A stretch of 64,000 nucleotides of DNA, from assembly GCA_000091205.1 (NCBI GenBank), contig AP006500.2. One strand, 5' to 3'. The DNA comes from Cyanidioschyzon merolae. Its lineage: Eukaryota. Positions 5 through 36,425 of this stretch are shown piece by piece. Under the pieces are notes generated by a model. That model was not told the DNA's origin, searched no databases, and saw only the letters and a program-made list of their open reading frames with translations. How positions within the stretch are numbered: position 1 is the stretch's first letter; each line of letters starts with the position of its first letter. The position numbers were made by a program, and so were the translations under genes.

Positions 5-997
5 GTGCGTGAGCGGTGCACGCATGCTGATACGCGGGAAGTGCACGGAGGCGATGCCCGCTCGAGGCAGCGCTTGTCGTCTGCTGAGCGCGCTACACGG
101 GTTCATGCTGGGGACTCCGAGGCGAATGTCCGTGATGGAGCCATATATCGGGGAACTTCGAAGCAATGGACACCTGGTTCACCGGCTGGAGCGTCTGGTC
201 GCGTTGTTGAGCGTTTCGAACTTGGCAAGGAGCCCGACAGCGATCATGTGTTGGACACTGAGCCAGAGCACGCACAGTCAAGTGCAGTTGTTGACGCACG
301 TTCCAGAGCGGTGCATGTTATGTCTGTGACGGAATTAGAATCCATGAAAGAAGCTCGGTTTCCTCGTTTGCTTGCACCGAAAATGGAACCAGAGCGATTT
401 CCATATGCGTGGTGCTCCGCAGACGAAGCAGCCATCAGGCAAATGTACGCAGCGGATGAGATCGTGCGCATGCCGCGCTCGTGCCGATACGGAGCCGCTC
501 TGGGGCCGTCATCATCGGTACTGCTGCCGTCGCAGGCACCACGGTCGGCGGTGGGGGTTCAGCGCTCGCGTGCGAGCGGCTGGTGGCAGACCCTCGTCAC
601 CGCATTCCATGCGGGTGTCCGCAACTCCACAACGCACACGAATCGTGATGATGATGATGATGGTGATGACGGTGCTTGTGCATTCGCGGGTCAGGTGGAT
701 GACGGGACGCAGTGTCCACCACCGGCCTCGAAAGCGGGTGAAGCGGGCGCGCCGGCATTACGAGGTCTTTCTGAGACTGATTTTGGCCAAATCAGCTCAG
801 AAGGAGCTCATCCAAATGCAGCGCTCCATGGCTCCATGCTTCTACACAGACCAGGGGCGTACAAAGCGACTTTCCTCAATGAGTCCAGATCCTGTTATCT
901 GCAATCTCGGACGCGAACGTATGAACGCATCCGAGCGCTGCGGAGACAGCTGCAAATGCAGCGTCAGCAGCGAACAGCTGATGCCATCAGCACCTAG
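5..997 (+). CDS. hypothetical protein, 5' partial at window edge (acidic D-rich tract); overlaps alternative-frame ORF 372..1253 so frame choice is uncertain
   Basis: Long ORF from the six-frame track with no recognisable domain; GC-rich genomes give long spurious ORFs. Confidence 0.15.
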   Translation: MRERCTHADTREVHGGDARSRQRLSSAERATRVHAGDSEANVRDGAIYRGTSKQWTPGSPAGASGRVVERFELGKEPDSDHVLDTEPEHAQSSAVVDARSRAVHVMSVTELESMKEARFPRLLAPKMEPERFPYAWCSADEAAIRQMYAADEIVRMPRSCRYGAALGPSSSVLLPSQAPRSAVGVQRSRASGWWQTLVTAFHAGVRNSTTHTNRDDDDDGDDGACAFAGQVDDGTQCPPPASKAGEAGAPALRGLSETDFGQISSEGAHPNAALHGSMLLHRPGAYKATFLNESRSCYLQSRTRTYERIRALRRQLQMQRQQRTADAIST

Positions 998-1910
998 AGC
1001 GTTCGACATCGCTATGTGCGTTGAGATACTTGACCTGGGACTCGCACACATGGGCACGCGTGAGCGACTCCGCGTGTCCCATAGAGATATGTATCCAAGC
1101 CGCCTCGATCCTCGAGAGGATCATCTGGTTTGCGACTCGTGTTCCTTGCCGTTCCCTTTGAGTATATACCCGCTATTCACATGTTATGCTTCGTATGCTG
1201 CGCTACAATGTTTCCCCTTTGGGTGTTCGTGGCTGCATCGATTTTCGCCATAGCGCGCCAGGGCGCAGGTGGGCGCGCGGGCTCGTTCGGAACGTCAACG
1301 AGATGCGTTTCCCAGCTTCGCGTCGCCGACAGCAGCAGTGTCCGAGCGAACGGCGCAGCTGTTACAGCATTAGCTTTGGCGTCAGTTGCTCGCTCAAGTT
1401 CATGTTTTTGAATCACTGAGTCCCCGTATGGGAGCGCCACGGGCGGCTGTCCGCATCCTGAGGACTTGCACGAGGCAACGTGCCTGCCGAGCGTCACCGA
1501 GTCTGCGTCCGTCTGGAGCATACCTAGGGCATCTGTATCCCAGAGATGGGCGTATCTCGTCGGGACCGTCAGCCGCCGGTGGTATCCGAACGATCCACTG
1601 GATGGCAACGCGAGGAGTGCGTCTCGACGACACGCAACGCTTGACGGTAGCTGCACTGCCGCACTCGGTCTCTTTCGTTGTGTGCAGCGCCCCGATTCTA
1701 CTCGGCATTGAGAACATACGCTAATCTAACGATGGCATTAGCTGGCAATGGTCATACCAAACGATGCACCCGTGCGCGGTTTCGTAGAAGCGGCCGCAAG
1801 CGAGCGATTACCGTGATGCGCTCCCGGTTCACATCGAGCGTCACATGCCTGGTAATGCGCCTGGTACCGATGATGCGTATCCGAATCGTTTCAGCGTCGG
1901 GGTCTAGATT

Positions 1911-3501
1911 GGTGTCAGCATAAAATGGAGCAGGTCCACGAATACTGGCTAGCTCTCTAAAAAATGGGCCTCTTCTCCTGGCCGTCAGCGCCAGCCACTG
2001 TGGGATTTTTCCGTGACTGCTTCTTGTTTTATGTTTCTTGTATCTGAAATGAAAAACCGCGGTCTGTCCTTTTACTCTAGATCGGTTGTCACTAGTCGAT
2101 GGATATTGAGGAACACGTCCAAGCGCCGATGTGGCCGATTCAAGCTGTTATCGACGAATATCATAGACACTCGATCGTTGTGAGCTACGCTTCACTCGCC
2201 ATTTTCATGTTATTTATACAGAGCCCCAGTGCGTCCTTCGCGGCGGTGGCGCTTAACTCTTTTCAGATGTTCCTATACGCGCACCAAACATCCGCGGGCT
2301 TCTCCTCCTTCTTCTTCGAGCACCGCCACGTGACACGGGAACGCTTGCTTCGTCCCTAACCACACGAACTTGACGGGTAGCGTGGGGTTCCTTCGATGTC
2401 TCACTCCGTTTCCGCGCCTCAGTGCTGTACCCTAGGATGACGGGCGTCGTCGTCGGCAATCTCCTCGGCGAGTGTGCTGTTCGCAGGACACGAAAGCGTA
2501 GGCTGCCCCATTCGGCTGCGGATTTGTGGAACGCGATATTGACCATGACGAAACAGTGTCTGGAAGGAAACCCGGGCCTGACGAAGCACTCGAGAGATCC
2601 AGTTCCATCTACGCTCCGTTCGTGCAGCGGATTTGTGGAACGCGATACTGACCATGACGAAACAGTGTCTGGAAGGAAACCCGGGCCTGACGAAGCACTC
2701 GAGAGATCCAGTTCCATCTACGCTCCGTTCGTGCAGCGGATTTGTGGAACGCGATATTGACCATGACGAAACAGTGCCTGGAAGGAAACCCAGGCCTGAC
2801 GAAGCACTCGAGAGATCCAGTTCCATCTACGCTCCGTTCGTGCAGCGCGGTGAAGCAGCCTCCGATAGAAGCGATCGCTGCGATAACGCAAGTCCGAGTC
2901 CAAGACACTTCTCCATGCAAACCGAAGACACGCGGGCCTCTACGAGCATACCCCGTGCAGCGTCGCACGCTGTTGTTGGCTCGCGCTCCACCGATAGCGT
3001 CAAAACGGGTAGGAATTGTTGTTCGGTCGATTTCAGCTAATGGAGGCGACAAGGTCAGTGAGCTTACGTTATGAGCTTGTACATACGACGTTCAGGGACA
3101 GCATCGACTTTTTCGTTTCCACGTCAATCCACCAGCGCCAACGCCTGCACCAACGAGTTGCTTTGAACGAGAACGATCGAAAACTTGAGCAGTGTCTGTG
3201 CTGCGAGCCTGCTATACGTCGGGCAAGGACAGGTGCGGCGGCTTGTACGCATGCATCGAATAACGATATCCGTTATTTGAGGAAGCCTTGTCTGAGGGCG
3301 TCGCGAATCGTCTCGACCCCAGTGCCGTCACGAATTCCAGCAACGACGAATTGAACGGGAGACACTGCAACAGAGACCGACCGAGACTCCTACAACTGCG
3401 TATCGGTTCGTATGCTCTTATTGCTGAACTTCAAATGTTGAGGCCGTGCTTCTAAAAAATCTTCGGAAAACTATCGAATGGTTAGAATGGAGCGAGCGGC
3501 T
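1911..3501 (+). repeat. Left inverted-repeat arm (~1.59 kb), containing three copies of the 109-bp tandem unit
   Basis: Reverse complement matches 4442..5814 at high identity, by direct comparison of both ends and the internal ORFs. Confidence 0.85.
2520..2846. repeat. Tandem repeat, 109-bp unit x3 (ggatttgtggaacgcgata..ccgttcgtgcagc), inside the left arm
   Basis: Three consecutive near-identical 109-bp blocks read directly at 2520, 2629 and 2738. The only differences are single-base changes (t/c, c/t, g/a). Confidence 0.9.
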
Positions 3502-17566: not shown

Positions 17567-19170
17567 TGGAACGTCAAGTCATCCGGAGGGACTAGTTGAT
17601 CTGGTTTCGTGCTTGCTGGCTGTGCGGGCATATGCAGGAGGCCGCAATTGATGCATCAACCCCACAGCATGAGAAAAACACTCCTGGATGCAACAGCGGA
17701 AGTGACCATTCTTACTCGTAGGCAAGCGCGCAGAGATGTCGTTCAGGGATTTCGGATCGTCGACGCTGACTGCGAATCCCCGATGAAGCGATTGATATCC
17801 GCGTCCATCATTGCGCATCGCACTGTGAGGCGTCACCAATCACCACCTTTGCTTCTCTTCACGTATACTAGTCCGCCAGTTCGTGTGATGCTGTGTGGTG
17901 CCGACTGCCTACCCTGAGCGCCGACGAGGACGTACACGGTGCCGCAGCGGATGCTGCACGGAGGCAAAGCGGCTTCGCCATACCCGTGAGAACGTCGGCT
18001 CTAAATGTGGTTTATTTGACGCGTCGTCAGGTATCTCCCTCATGTCGTGCCCTGACAGTCACTGTATGCGGACCTGACTTTACATCAAGATGCGTTGCAG
18101 AAAAGAAGCTGTCAGGAGGAATCCTGAAAACCCCGAGTCTTCGCTTCCCTGTATTGGGAGGCATGCAATGCGGTCTTGCGACTCGGGGGCCATTGCGCTG
18201 CACTCAGCAGCCAGGAGATGCACGAAACGCCGGGCGCGCATGTTCATGCAGTTCGCGGCTCTTTTTCGCCTAGAAAGACGAATAAGAGTTTGGTGCCAGA
18301 TAGCGCGCATTTTGGTCCAACCAGTGGGCCTCCAATTGTCAGTTCTGCACCCAAAATAAGCGAACGCTCATGAGCATCTATAGTGACATCCACGAGGTGT
18401 GATTGCTCGAACAGCCAGCTTCGTTCCTGTGTCCGAACGCGAACACTGCAAAAGCGAGTCTCGCCGAGCATTGGGAGTTACGTCTCCCCTGCAGAAGCAG
18501 TATGATTCCCTGCGAGCATGTAATTTTTCGATGCAACACAAGGCCCGGACGTGCTAGACTTCACCGATTCGCTCTTTAGCGAGCCAGACGGTTCCCATGG
18601 GAACCTCTGACCACCCCAATGACTCCCGCCAAACGTTTCATGTCTCTACTCGGTGGTTCTTCTAATGGGATGCGAGGCCAACGTTGAAGATCCTGTTCTT
18701 TCGAAATCGGCATTTGCATTCTTTGCCTTGAACCGTTCGTTAGAGATGTCGAGAAAAGAGTCAGTCCCAGAAACCAACTGGTATATATCCACTCCAAAGC
18801 CATACTTGAGGAAAATCTGCCTCCACTAGACCCAAACGCTTTTTCGATACCTTGGGATGCACGCCATCATCCGGTTGAGCCGGGGGCGCGTGCTGGGCCT
18901 CTTGGCCCTTGTACGACGCGCTGCAGTCTGCTGCAATGACTTCCAACGGGGGTGTATAGGATTTACATCCGAGAGCTTCCGTGCTGGGTGCTCTGCCGAG
19001 CATCCCGACACGATTCGCATCGACCTGTTGACTGGGGTCTGCATTCGCGAAGCGAGTGCGAGGCTCATGCCCCACCATTCGACGCCCCAGGTGACCGCCT
19101 TGATGATGCACATCCTAATTGACCCGATGCAGACTCCCAGCGACATCCCTATGGGTCCGATAAGAACCTG

Positions 19171-25038: not shown

Positions 25039-26581
25039 GAGCTACTATCCTGCATCGGAACGAAGGACGCTCACCCGCGGTAGTGTCGCGCTTCTGATCC
25101 GCGCAGGCGCGTAAGCCGGCAGGAGTCGTTGCTGCATCGAGTTTTTTTCGATGACAGAGCGTTTCCATTGACCATGAATCCCCAATAGCGGGATGGGTAC
25201 TACGATTCATGTAATTCTCCATCATGACGCAACCTATCTCCAAGTTCCATTACCCATATTTCCTCTCAGGTATACTGGTCTTTTCCTTTGTTCTATCGTA
25301 TGCCAAGTGCCTGCAGTGAGCACCCACCGCAGCGCCTAAACCGCTTGTGCGGATGCTACACGGAGACAGAGTAGCTTTGTCATACCACTGAGGGCGTCGG
25401 CTCGAGGAATGCTACACCTGACACGGGATCAGGGCTACTTATCATTCTGGGAGTCTGGAAGCTGCGCAGGCAGGCGTACTGCCTGCGGCAGCGCAGAGCG
25501 ATATTCTTCGAGGACACCACGACCAGCGCGACGCCCAGACGCAGCATACCGCTCTGAGTCCCAGAATAAACTGCATTGCGGACGAGTTGCTCAGATCTCT
25601 CTGCATGACCAGGCTCCGAGAGGTCTATGAAGCACGAGCCTGGGAGAATCGTCCGACTCGCGGGACATTCCGCCCAGAAGGTAAACTTTCGTCAATATGG
25701 AAATCTTTGCTCCCCATGAATTTTTATCATTGACAGGGAAGGCAATTGTTATCTCGCTGCCAGTCAGTAGTGAGTCTCTGCTCTTCGTTCTATAGAGTAC
25801 AGTCGATAGGCGCACCCAGGAGATCTGCCAGGCACGAGGTACGACGTGGATATCGCCATTGAAGAGAAACGCGATCCTGATCATTAGCATGTTGTATACC
25901 GTACAAGGTGTATTTGCGTTGAAGTCGTAGCAACGTTTAGTCTTCAGTTCAGTTGTGTTCCAACCCCAAAGCAAGTATATACGAGCGATTTTTCGTGGTT
26001 TATAGCAGAAGCGTTCAAAGTGTGTTCTTTTTCGAAAATAAAAAAGGAAAGTTCTGGACGAAGAAGTGGAGGATCCTGGAGGCACGGTGTCGCCAGGTGG
26101 CGAAAAGAACGAAAAATAGTGCCGAGCAAAGATGAACAGGAGAAGAAGAAGAAGAAGCGAGAGCCAGACCTCAACGGCTGCAAGAAAGGCGACAGCATGA
26201 CGAGATGATAGTGAACGCCTGCCTTCTTGGATGTATCAAGGATCCGTACGAGCAGAAGATGCGAGAGACCACCAGAAGCCGTGTCGATTCCTACTCCAGG
26301 AGCGTGCGTAACACTTCTTTTTGGACTGAAGCATACGGTGAAGGAGATATACGATGACCTTACCGACACGAAAACAGTCGAGGTTCCGGAAGCGTTTTTT
26401 TTAACAAGACCCTCAGCCGCCACTTGATGCTTGGCACAGGGGGACGTCGAGGGAAAATGAGCGCATGTGCGTCCTCCATGAAAAATACCCCTACTAGGGT
26501 CTCAAAGGTACTCGTTACAGGGGTGACTCGCGTATTTTCGAATACAGGGCAAAAAAGTATCTCACGAACCTGAACAACCAT

Positions 26582-28095
26582 ATGATCATGAAGCTCGAAC
26601 GTTTCATGACACGCTCCATCGTTGCGCGCTACCCGGGCCTCTCTCGCAAAGGGATACGGGCCATCATCAATGGCGTCAGGAACGATAGTAAGAATGAACA
26701 GGAGATCGAATTCCTCGACGAGAAGACATCACACAGGAGAACGAATGAAGCTTCTGCAATCCGTACGGCAATTCAAGAGCACCGTCCGGTCTCGGAGCTG
26801 GTCAATCCAGCAGGAAATGTATCAGGTATGGAAAAAGAAAAGCAAAGATGTTATCCCCTAATCCTGCGCTATTTCGTGTGTTTGGACCGCGAACTCGATC
26901 CCAAGGCCAATATGGAGCTGGGTGTGGAACAAAATGTAGAGTCAGAGAAACGGAAGGGTATCCTAACGGGTAAGCGCTTTAGCGTTGTTGCGTTATGCAT
27001 CACCAAGTTCCATTTTGTAACAATCGACTCCAGAGTCCTCAACGGCATCATGAAGGAGGTCTGTCTGGAGTTCGATGTAAGGAAGATAGAGTTCACCAGT
27101 GAAAACCGGGAGACGTACTGGAAGAATATCTTCAATTTCAAACGTCTCAATACGTGCAAGCAAAAGGTATTCACTGGCATCATCGAAACCGATGGAGTAG
27201 CCATGTGTGTACACTCTCGGCGCTTGAAGGCAGATCGTCCAGTTCCGTCCTCGACTGCGCCCGTGGCGAAGCATGAAGAAAACAAGGAGGCTGGCCTTAC
27301 AACGCAGGAGGTACAGGAGAACGATTTTGTTGTTGGCACGGACCCTGGGAACACGAATATCGTAACCATCGCAGTACCCAAGCGTGCGGAAGATGATATC
27401 GACGGCAACTTACGTCAGAAGGACATCCGTCTTTGAAAGCTCACGACAGCTACATCTTACCGAGAATCAGGAAAACTGAATGCAAGGAAAAGAAATGAGA
27501 CGTGGAATGCAGGAGTGAAAGAGCACAAGGCAGCGATCAGCCAGGTGACGAGCCGAGGAGCGGACTTTGAAGCTTTTCGAGAGTTCATGAAAGTCCGCGC
27601 TGCTCTTGACGAGCCGCTGTCGAAAGAATCTACAAAGCCCCGGTGGGCTCGTCTGCTTAGAATCTTGTACTTTGGGAAGCAGCACGCATTTGCCAACTTC
27701 TTCAATGAGTTGAGCGCTCTCAAAGAGGACAAAATTCAGAGACTCGTGGTGGTATACGGAGCAGGGCATTGGATGACACGGAAAGGTAGCACACCAGCTC
27801 CATCGACACGAGCGTATAAGGAGTGCACACTGTGCTTCGTCATGATGTCGATAGATGGGTTCCGAACGTCGTATACATCCACCATGAGCTAGGGTGTGTA
27901 CTTGAGAGTGTCGAGATGGAAAAGTGCCAGCAGAGCACTGAGGATGTAGCAAACTACGGAGCGCTGACAGAGCACCTAACGGCATGGAGGGTGCGAGTTC
28001 GAGGTCTACTTCCGTTGGTGAGTACAACCAATGCCAAGAAACATATGAAATTCGTGAACCGAGACTTCAATGCCGCCAACAGTATAAGCAGATAG
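26582..28095 (+). pseudogene. TnpB/Fanzor-like nuclease ORF, copy A. It is disrupted by an in-frame TGA at 27434, a frameshift near 27865 and a TAG at 28094.
   Basis: ORFs 26582..27436 and 27515..27892 are in the same frame, separated by one TGA. ORF 27823..28095 continues in a different frame. Copy B reads through all of these positions. Confidence 0.55.
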
Positions 28096-28410
28096 GCGGT
28101 GCTGGAGAAGAGGCCCCCAGAGTTGACCAGAGCCAACTTTCTGGGGCAACCTCTGCAGATGGCGCTGTACGAGAAGAAGCTGAAGCCAGTAGTAAATGGC
28201 CGGTCCAAAAACCCTGGGAGAATTCTGCACGCTGGCGTATATACATCAACGCTATCGGCTTGATGTGTGTGCGTTCGTTTGCTCGTTTTGCTGGCGGGAT
28301 TGATGGCGTCGATCCCGAGTCCAGATGGAGAGCTGGCGGGAATGCTGCTGCGCTCTTTTCGCTGCAGTGCGTTGCGAGGCATTCTGTAACGAGAGGCAGG
28401 TTTCCAGGGG
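28096..28410 (+). ncRNA. Candidate omegaRNA scaffold region of Fanzor-like copy A (conserved 3' tail shared with copies B and C)
   Basis: ~300 nt downstream of the RuvC-III motif align by eye between A (28096-28410), C (36140-36425) and the reverse complement of B (34262-34370), e.g. ccagagttg..gagccaacttt..ggggcaacctct..tacgagaagaag.tgaa.ccagtagt. In TnpB/Fanzor systems the guide-RNA scaffold occupies exactly this position. Confidence 0.25.
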
Positions 28411-31687: not shown

Positions 31688-33655
<1,968 letters not shown>

Positions 33656-34261: not shown

Positions 34262-35330
34262 GGTCGTCTATTGCAGAGCACGACTTGCATCGATTCTGGA
34301 ATACCGCCACCAAACGCCGTTCGAAAGTCGAACGACGCCAACGGTGTACAGTAGTGGCGAGTGACCCGCCCTAGACAAGACGTCTCCAAGTGACGTGCAG
34401 ACGCCATCCGATCTTTCTCGACCGGCCACCTACGACTACTGCTCCCAACTTCTTCTCATATAGTTCGACTTTTGGAGGTTGTTCCACAAAGTTCTCCCGT
34501 GTCAACTCTGGAGGTCTCGTCTCTATCACCGCACATCTCCTTATATTGGTAGCGGCATTAAGGTCTCGGTTCACAAACTCCATACGTTTCTTGCAATCAT
34601 TGGTTGTACGTACTCATGCGAGTAGCCCTCGAAGTCTCGCTCTCCTTTCCATTTGCTCCTCCGTCAGCGGTCCATACTTTTTTATATCTTCAGGGCTCCG
34701 CTGACACTTTTCCATCTCCACTGTCTGAAGTGTACACCCCTGTTCATGGTGTGTATACGAGGTTCGGAACTCATCTACAGGTATCGTAACGAAACGCCGT
34801 GCGCCCTCCTTGTACGTTCTTGTCGTTGGAGCTGGCGTAGTCCCTTTTTGGGTCTTCCATCGCCTTGCTCCGTACGCTACGACGAGCCTCTGATTTCCAT
34901 CCTCCTTCAGGTCACTCAACTGATTGAAAAAATTCGCGAACGCCCGCTGCTCCCCACAATACAAATTCATTCGCAAACGAGCCCGCCGGGGCTTGGTATA
35001 CTCCTCCCACAGCGCATCCCAATGGGCAACGCGAACTTTCATGAATTTCCGAAAAGCTGCAAAGTCCGCGCCTCGTCTAGTCACCTCGCTCAAAGCTTCC
35101 AGGTGCTCTTTCATTCCTGAGTTCCAAGTCTCGATTTTCTTCCTCGCATTCATTATACCGGATTCTCGATAGTATCTTGCTCTCGAGAGCCTCAAAAGAC
35201 GCATGTCTTTCTGACGTAAGTTACCATCAGTCCCATCTTCCGCACACTTTGGTACAGAGATGGTTATGATGCTCGTATTCCCAGGGTCCGCGCCAACGAC
35301 AAAGTCGTTATCCTGCACCTCCTGCATCGC
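34262..35330 (-). pseudogene. TnpB/Fanzor-like nuclease, copy B. It lacks the ~230-aa N-terminal region and has one in-frame TGA at 34614-16; the RuvC-I..RuvC-III region plus the 3' conserved tail are otherwise contiguous.
   Basis: ORFs 34614..35327(-) and 34371..34583(-) are in the same frame. Motifs present: FVVGADPGNTSIIT ... FRTSYTHHEQGC ... FVNRDLNAATNIRRC. Confidence 0.55.
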
Positions 35331-35399
35331 AGGATCCGCATCATTCTCATCTACATCCTTCGCCAGGGGCGAAGCCGAGGACGGACCAGGAAGCGGGCC

Positions 35400-36425
35400 C
35401 GACGGCGCTGGAGGTGCAGAAGAACGCGTTTGTCGTTGGCGTGGATCCCGGGAACACCCACATCGTTACCATCGCAGCACCCAAGCGTGAGGAAGATGGC
35501 TCTGTCGGCAACTTACGTCAGAAAGACATAAGTCTGTTGAAGCTCTCATGAGCGAGATATTACCAAGAATCCGGTATAATGAATGCGACGGAGAAAAGTG
35601 AGACATCGAACTCAAGAGTGAAGGGAATTTGGAAGCGATCAGCCGGGTGACGAGCCGCGGAGCCGACATTGAAGCGTTTCGAGAGGTTATGAGCATTCAC
35701 GCAGCTGATGACGAGAGCTTTTGGAAAGAATGCACAAAGTTCAGGTGGGCTCGTCTGCGTATGAACCTGTACTGTAGGAAGCAGCGAGCATACGCCAGCT
35801 TTTTCAATCAATTGAGCGCCCTCAAGGAGGACATGAGCCAAAGGCTCGGAGTAGCATACGGGGCAGGGCGCTGGATGACCCAAAAAGGGTGTACACCAGC
35901 TCCAACGACAAGAACGTACAAGGAGTGCGCACATCGTTATGTCGAAATACCTTTAGATGAGTTTCGAACATCTCATACACACCACGAGCTGTGTTGTACA
36001 CTTCAGAGGGTCGCGATGGAGAAAAGCCAGCGGCTCGCTGACGGAAATGCAAATAGCAAGGAGGGCGAAACTTCGAGGACTACTCGCTTTGGTTCGTAAA
36101 ACTAATGATAGGAAGAAACGAATAGAGTTCCTGGACTGAGACTTTAACGCCGCCATCAGTATAAGGAAATGTGCAGTACTGGAAAGAAGACCCCCGGAGT
36201 TGGCGAGAGCCAACTTTGCGGGGCAACCTCTTAAAATGGAGTGATACGAGAAGAAGTTGAAACCAGTAGTAGGTGGCCAGTTGCTGAACGCCAGCACAGT
36301 CGTCTGCACATCATTGGGTAGACAATCGGTCTACGGCGGACGGTGTGAGAAACGCCACCATTGTACACTGGCTTTCCAGCGTTTCTCTTTTGCAAGGCGT
36401 TTGGTGGTGTTTCCAGAGACGAATT
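35400..36425 (+). pseudogene. TnpB/Fanzor-like nuclease, copy C, head-to-head with copy B. It has several in-frame stops, including CGA>TGA inside the RuvC-III NRD motif (LD*DFNAAISI), and it lacks the N-terminal region.
   Basis: By hand translation: 35423.. [42 protein letters not shown]; the ORF 35629..36099 carries the central region; 36130.. reads D*DFNAAISIRKCAVLERRPPELARANF. Confidence 0.5.

Follow-up and report, generated by a model that had tools for sequence, protein, structure and literature searches.

A 64,000-nucleotide stretch of the genome of the red alga Cyanidioschyzon merolae (contig AP006500.2 of assembly GCA_000091205.1; here the window) holds two 5'-truncated copies of a Fanzor-type transposable element, B and C, which stand head to head with their 3' tails pointing outward. 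Judged by their sequences, both are members of CMe-1A, an already described Fanzor1 element of this alga, as is a third, longer copy, A, elsewhere in the window. The two arms are not sisters: C belongs with A to an old subfamily, B to the main burst of the family, which is younger, and neither is derived from the other. We favour, with a probability of about 55%, an origin in which two separate insertions gave a tail-out pair whose centre was later removed by one microhomology-mediated deletion. The locus is a real but ordinary transposon scar of a family known since 2013, and what is mildly new about it is that such near-symmetric head-to-head pairs recur.

CMe-1A was described by Bao and Jurka (2013, Mobile DNA 4:12, PMC3627910) as a Repbase consensus of 3169 bp, encoding the 734-amino-acid protein CMe-1 and present in about 150 copies that each match the ~3-kb consensus at about 80%. 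It is without terminal inverted repeats, was not assigned to a class by its authors, and begins with 635 bp that are another element, TE-N2_CMe; their account includes no truncated or head-to-head copies. Using the consensus and the CMe-1 protein from the supplementary files of that paper (PMC3627910), we found by blastn that consensus 1-3087 matches copy A at 25149-28231 on the plus strand (82.4% identity), consensus 2093-3169 matches copy B at 35391-34315 on the minus strand (88.2%), and consensus 2110-3169 matches copy C at 35358-36399 on the plus strand (77.1%). Copy A (25149..28231, plus) is near full-length and old, with several stops and frameshifts; its last ~80 nt, and the terminal hairpin region, are absent. 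The 5' terminus of CMe-1A, CGATGACAAAACGTTT..., which full-length copies at other loci also carry, lies in A at 25149, about 1.25 kb further 5' than the start at 26400 given in a preliminary description of this DNA. A also carries a TE-N2-like 635-bp 5' module at 25149-25808 (81%). Copy B (34295..35391, minus) covers consensus 2093-3169 and a 3' extension of ~20 nt, corresponding to CMe-1 residues 397-734, and copy C (35392..36417, plus), which is older and more decayed, covers consensus ~2139-3169 and the 3' extension; the CMe-1A 3' terminus ...GCGTTTTTCTTTTGAAAGGCG is present in both.

The preliminary description had called B and C Fanzor-like, and the consensus match agrees, as does a profile of 33 homologues that, in an hmmsearch against the PDB, matched the Fanzor1 structures 9cf0 (E = 2.3e-17) and 8gkh (1.1e-10), with 9cer at 0.14. 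Only the profile did so: single fragments matched nothing in Pfam or the PDB, no Pfam family rose over threshold for eight open reading frame (ORF) fragments or four full-length homologues, a precomputed DUF8286 match in the database was weak, and phmmer found no match for the B ORF in the PDB. An exact look-up of the window ORFs in the contig index gave no match, and the repaired protein, used as a query, retrieved more than 130 relatives, all metagenomic, from which the 33 of the profile were taken. Bao and Jurka (2013, PMC3627910) give the Fanzor1/TnpB-like motif as D-X(125,275)-[TS][TS]-X-X-[zinc finger]-X(5,50)-RD. Copy B conforms to it, with its D in GADPGNT, followed by EFRTSYTHHEQGC...C and then NRD, and a D-to-TS spacing of 176 residues; in C a stop replaces the R of RD. 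The zinc finger is of the form HH-C-C, not C4.

Both copies are pseudogenes, and a Fanzor protein is impossible from either. In a tblastn comparison with CMe-1, B aligns in a single frame at 84% identity and has one stop, a TGA in place of a Leu codon at 34614..34616 (minus), which the preliminary description had noticed. C aligns in three frames, with two frameshifts, an 8-codon deletion and three stops; one of these is the CGA>TGA change in the RuvC-III NRD motif (36137..36139, plus), likewise seen before, and the other two are additions to the earlier account.

As had been proposed from the letters alone, each copy is cut just upstream of RuvC-I and ends outward in a conserved 3' tail. The 3' end common to all copies (A, which lacks it, aside) reads ...GTCTAGGGCG...CGCCACTACTGTACAC...GGCG, with a terminal hairpin, and runs ~13-20 nt (e.g. 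TTGATGGTGC) past the published consensus before giving way to unrelated flank. In B the 3'-terminal hairpin (34313..34339, minus) is GGCGUCGUUCGA-CUU-UCGAACGGCG, with an 11-bp stem and a minimum free energy (MFE) of -15.9 kcal/mol versus -5.5 for shuffles; in C (36366..36391, plus) it is the decayed form of another variant, GCGUUUCUC-UUUU-GCAAGGCG, with an MFE of -3.9. Across the family the two variants, CGTTCGA-CTT-TCGAACG and CGTTTTTC-TTTT-GAAAGGCG, pair in different registers. Folded singly, 49 copies gave a mean MFE of -9.6 kcal/mol versus -4.4 for shuffles, and the hairpin is kept in most; RNAalifold returned no consensus structure for the 49 3' tails because, with two pairing registers, covariation cannot be counted column by column, and an Rfam search gave no match. 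The conserved tails of B and C are the terminal hairpin region of the element, which may mark the transposon end, contribute to a guide RNA, or do both. The stretch past the consensus (34295-34315 and 36390-36408) holds TTCCAG(A/G) in B, C and several other copies, either as element sequence or as a preferred target.

The two copies form an inverted repeat, 35499..34295 (minus) against 35233..36417 (plus), at 71.6% over 1222 nt (blastn, E = 3e-178), which agrees with the strands and the tail-out orientation first reported; a repeat search gave inverted arms of 233-421 nt at 73-79%. Self-comparison and comparison with A also confirmed the expected homology, the two arms aligning to A at 27238-28211 (75.6%) and 27255-28204 (72.2%). 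The DPGNT codons of RuvC-I lie at 35274..35288 (minus) in B and 35444..35458 (plus) in C, ~155 nt apart on opposite strands, close to the ~150 bp originally stated. The 5' ends had been described as overlapping, which does not hold. The 5' limit of B lies at 35391-35393 (consensus 2091-2093) and the start of C at 35387-35392 (consensus ~2139), making B ~48 nt longer in element coordinates, and the head-to-head junction itself (35386..35393) is CCAGGAAG, readable as the last bases of B in antisense or the first of C in sense. We assign 35366-35391 to B because on B's strand it matches the upstream sequence of A and of the consensus; it has no match to the start of C. The apparent overlap arises because the element has its own short inverted repeat, CTTCGCC-AGG-GGCGAAG with 7-nt arms, at 35356..35372, within B (consensus 2110-2126) and present also in A and the consensus. 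The junction is best described as a microhomology join of ~8 nt, neither a spacer nor an overlap.

Are the two arms sisters? We annotated the copies in 81 loci and aligned the 1 kb that they share, which left 57 copies after removal of near-duplicates. From the consensus of these 57, B, a typical young CMe-1A copy, differs by 9.0% (median 10.4%, bulk 7.7-13.6%), C by 20.3% and A by 20.4%. C and A have 59 derived states in common versus 11.9 expected by chance; B and C have 15, the same level as B versus unrelated copies. At the 59 diagnostic sites of the old A/C subfamily, B shows the young state at 52, without a gradient towards the junction. In all 4000 bootstrapped quartets (20 young copies, Y, with 200 replicates each) the topology was ((A,C),(B,Y)), and in none were B and C sisters; within the window A is the closest relative of C. 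The terminal-hairpin variants of B and C differ as well. The inverted homology is bounded by the element 3' ends (34295 and ~36417), and no similarity was found between flank W and flank R.

These results speak against two of the origins first suggested for the pair. A local inverted duplication predicts sister arms and homology reaching into the flanks; the arms are not sisters, and the homology stops at the element ends, a boundary that neither a chromosomal fold-back nor an inverted duplication would respect. Template switching in a single event during transposition also predicts sister arms and is ruled out by the quartets and by the differing subfamily and age of the arms, the sole escape for either origin being a near-complete later replacement of the left arm. 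An ancestral true palindrome was sought as old-type states in junction-proximal B, and none were found. Both arms run out to a transposon 3' terminus (the hairpin end) of their own, which argues that each arrived by transposition. The third early suggestion, two nested insertions, comes closest: two insertions fit, but there is no nesting, with no C sequence left of B, and an additional deletion or joining step is needed because the truncation points match.

The junction is found outside the reference assembly too. We inspected 80 of 236 related metagenome loci, which were chosen with a C-terminal query, so that frequencies of arrangements are biased, and found the same junction in eight contigs (L002, L003, L006, L015, L016, L020, L036 and L073) with five sample-accession prefixes; the sole difference in the junction region is one additional 75-nt repeat unit in six of the eight. 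Left flank, B and junction all agree with the window at ~99% in L002 and L003, and junction, C and right flank at 94-97% in L006 and L036. The junction is identical even though the C arm and right flank of these contigs depart from the window by 3-6%, and it is therefore older than the 3-6% divergence between these populations. To the extent that independent assemblies can show it, the window junction is not a mis-assembly.

The B side of the locus is more variable. Past the first 100-280 nt, the distal B arm in L006, in L036/L015/L016 and in L073 is ~87% identical to that of the window, and the left flank of B occurs in four unrelated variants, W, X, Y and Z, across the window and the contigs, with C and the right flank remaining at 94-97% identity. 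The contigs with a differing distal B arm or left flank are L006 (4531-10450), L036 (3763-9653), L015/L016 and L073 (1342 onwards), the window equivalent lying left of 34295. Such differences reflect either ectopic recombination with dispersed CMe-1A copies in natural lineages or short-read chimeras in a high-copy repeat; recombination is favoured because the arrangement of L036, L015 and L016 recurs in three samples. Movement of the B-C pair as a unit is ruled out, the right flank being constant in all contigs that reach it.

Copies at other loci show how readily this element is rearranged. Derivatives with internal deletions that keep both ends have five distinct structures in nine loci (for example, consensus 1-1037 joined to 1736-3168, 1-423 to 1399-3169, and 2-636 to 2239-3169). 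On the 5' side of the Fanzor core (~648-3169) stands the TE-N2 module, direct or inverted, or else other sequence, and core and 5' module seem to be separable units. The TE-N2-like 635-bp module stands, in either orientation, beside cores starting at consensus 648-660 in L040 (3852-4471), L053, L029, L034, L041 and L056; an unrelated ~450-bp module takes its place in L014, L055, L076, L038 and L074; and in L041 (9143-10739), L046 (4659-6110) and L073 (3551-4478) the TE-N2 module is joined to consensus ~2239-3169. As this last derivative recurs between loci, it would seem to be a non-autonomous deletion product that has itself been mobilised. Of the copies inspected, roughly one in five has no 5' end but keeps the 3' end, the starts lying at consensus 729, 869, 1215, 1976, 2030, 2093, 2139, 2236, 2507, 2665 or 2890. 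Variable 5' ends and inverted 5' segments led us to consider LINE-like 5' truncation or twin priming, which we dropped: an A-rich tail is missing, the two arms have the same 3' part in common, many of the short copies turn out to have internal deletions with the 5' end, and indeed both ends, retained, and the TE-N2 module is separate.

Other head-to-head pairs bear more directly on B and C. At L056 a minus-strand copy (consensus 1 to at least 2420) and a plus-strand copy (660-3145) are separated by 23 nt, tail-out and with the centre intact; the arrangement at L008 resembles it. A second pair that abuts occurs at L061, where a minus arm starting at ~2030 meets a plus arm starting at 1976 across a gap of 2 nt, with GAAGAA as microhomology. 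These two arms come out as sisters in only 0.7% of bootstraps, the plus arm grouping instead with a copy located ~10 kb away. No tail-to-tail or head-to-tail neighbours less than 300 nt apart were seen among the inspected loci, internal deletions aside. Just upstream of RuvC-I the element has a 75-nt minisatellite that varies from one to three units between copies, with three tandem units in L001, and the B-C and L061 junctions (2093/2139 and 1976/2030) fall, together with a breakpoint class at 2236-2243, within 270 nt around it. In intact copies the minisatellite encodes repeats of KHEExKEAxPATQxVQDNDFVV. The unit (window 35316/35317) occurs once in the window and in L006, and twice in L002 (628-702) and the equivalents in L003, L015, L016, L020, L036 and L073; TRF found no tandem repeat in the window copies between 34000 and 36800.

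How, then, did two unrelated copies come to abut at matching points? We infer a tail-out precursor and a deletion. In this proposal B and C would first have stood head to head, tails outward and with an intact centre, as at L056 and L008; a single microhomology-mediated deletion would then have taken out both 5' parts, so that the 3' thirds came to abut at consensus 2093 and ~2139. The near symmetry could have come from pairing of the inverted arms, as a hairpin, a cruciform or slippage across its base, or from the shared fragile 75-nt minisatellite. That internal deletions are common in CMe-1A supports the deletion step. That unrelated copies should twice (at B-C and at L061) be cut within ~50 nt of one element position and abut with no spacer is unlikely to be chance; by our own estimate, points matching within 55 nt over the 2.45-kb core would arise in ~4% of pairs.

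Several observations weigh against this proposal. An allele with an intact centre at the B-C locus was not found among the contigs examined. Internal deletions elsewhere in the family lack this symmetry. Arms only ~75-85% identical, with a ~650-bp spacer as in L056, should form a hairpin or cruciform poorly, an expectation drawn from inverted Alu repeats in yeast. The biased sampling of 80 of 236 loci affects the apparent frequency of arrangements. Finally, the B arms were perhaps exchanged by recombination, or the contigs are chimeric, and the original partner of C may have been another copy.

The matching cuts are also what sets this proposal apart from one in which two independent insertions, each already 5'-truncated, landed side by side by chance or target preference, with no later deletion. 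Non-sister arms, the substantial share of 5'-less copies that keep the 3' end, and the 3'-overabundance of other Fanzor1 elements (CRe-1, 2 and 3; PMC3627910) all accord with such insertions, but two cases of cuts within ~50 nt and zero spacer are left unexplained (the chance for both being ~0.2% by our estimate) and no target motif was found at the heads, which makes this origin improbable, though worth keeping in view. Slightly more doubtful is that double-strand breaks at a fragile site, namely the 75-nt minisatellite and the short inverted repeat just upstream of RuvC-I, occurred in two separate CMe-1A copies whose ends were then mis-joined, by inversion between direct copies or by translocation, with the B-C pair as one of two products. 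The clustering of both junctions and the 2236-2243 class around the minisatellite, its variation in unit number between copies and between alleles of the B-C locus, microhomology at both junctions and the varying left flank of B would all fit; the breakpoints, however, are not at one site, no reciprocal 5'-to-5' junction was seen (although our sampling could not have found one), and the existence of tail-out precursors means that a simple deletion suffices.

A true palindrome of an old C-type copy, made by fold-back priming, inverted duplication or template switching, could have had its left arm overwritten later by recombination or gene conversion with young copies. Abutting arms with ~50 nt of single-copy asymmetry do resemble fold-back inversions, the B arms look exchanged between contigs, and one 100-nt tract of the B arms in L036, L016 and L020 is 87-88% C-like, versus 78% in the window. 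We nevertheless hold this history to be quite improbable: B has the young state at 52 of the 59 diagnostic positions, to within ~25 nt of the junction; a fold-back would reach into flanking DNA, whereas here the homology goes no further than the element and the two flanks are dissimilar; old and young copies, only ~75% identical, are a poor substrate for conversion; and the arms of L061 are non-sister too. An assembly artefact deserves almost no credence. The family is a high-copy repeat, and the metagenome contigs disagree on the distal B arm and left flank, but the junction recurs base for base in eight other contigs, the 75-nt unit polymorphism aside, and L002 and L003 match left flank, B and junction at 99%.

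We return to the deletion of a tail-out centre as the preferred origin, and to what it may mean for the family. Head-to-head pairing occurs at four independent loci (B-C, L061, L056 and L008) among ~57 non-redundant copies, two of them centre-deleted at matched positions. That such pairing is a systematic property of this unclassified Fanzor1 element, and not an accident, is a speculation that we consider unlikely to hold; if it did, the core may insert at either end of the ~635-bp TE-N2 module, or Fanzor-linked breaks may occur near the RuvC-I minisatellite. Systematic pairing would offer a first handle on how Fanzor-only elements of the CMe-1A type move and reshape red-algal genomes, and the swapping of arms and flanks between natural populations would belong to the same process. 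The recurrent near-symmetric pairs and variable B-side flanks are in any case a lead on Fanzor-linked instability. The B-C locus also carries a caution: a palindrome-like structure can arise from two unrelated copies, and the identity of its arms alone is no proof of duplication.

The window, with a G+C content of ~56%, long uninterrupted ORFs and intron-poor genes, has a eukaryotic look, and its G+C content, its intron-poor genes and the presence of CMe-1A point to a Cyanidioschyzon-like host. At 31703-33655 lies an intron-less DEAD-box helicase gene of the DDX5/DBP2 type, which terminates 640 nt away from B's 3' end; its 100% matches are only among JGI, Logan and ENA metagenome proteins, and named relatives are at most 62% identical. 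A 100-nt piece at 17900-18001, at a distance from all Fanzor cores, resembles the TE-N2_CMe-like 5' module over positions 153-252 (74%) and is probably the remnant of a solo TE-N2 element.

Centre deletion of long inverted repeats and palindromes is a general phenomenon of genome instability. The B-C locus would resemble it in its pair of inverted arms, with the centre gone, the end points nearly symmetric and the join marked by microhomology; unlike efficient palindrome centre deletion, it would have proceeded under inefficient conditions, with arms of the B/C type ~75-85% identical and probably separated by a spacer. In protein sequence, the family compares with the Fanzor1 nucleases of Parasitella parasitica (9cf0) and Spizellomyces punctatus (8gkh), the profile match spanning WED/REC, RuvC-I and the DEFRTS...NRD C-terminus. 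In contrast to these solved nucleases, B and C are fragments that have lost at least 396 N-terminal residues and contain stops, and the zinc-finger positions are HH..C..C in place of four cysteines.

Among Fanzor1-bearing elements, CRe-1, 2 and 3 of Chlamydomonas are non-autonomous Helitron2 elements for which 3'-overabundance has been described (PMC3627910). CMe-1A copies resemble them in their intact 3' ends, variable 5' ends and sub-terminal 3' hairpin. We nevertheless rejected CMe-1A as a Helitron or Helitron2: despite the hairpin, its ends are 5' CGATGAC... and ...GGCGTTGATGGTGC 3', not Helitron-like (no 5'-T/TC and no CTRR-3'), and many of its shortened copies have lost internal sequence but still possess the 5' end. 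With published CMe-1A the window copies share the 5' terminus, the 3' hairpin end and the 734-amino-acid Fanzor1 ORF, and here too copies are old and diverged and the ~635-bp 5' part, TE-N2_CMe, acts as a separate module. Our data refine the ends and the modular build of CMe-1A beyond the description of Bao and Jurka (2013), with a 3' end ~13-20 nt longer, two variants of the terminal hairpin, and a 5' module that can stand in either orientation or be replaced.

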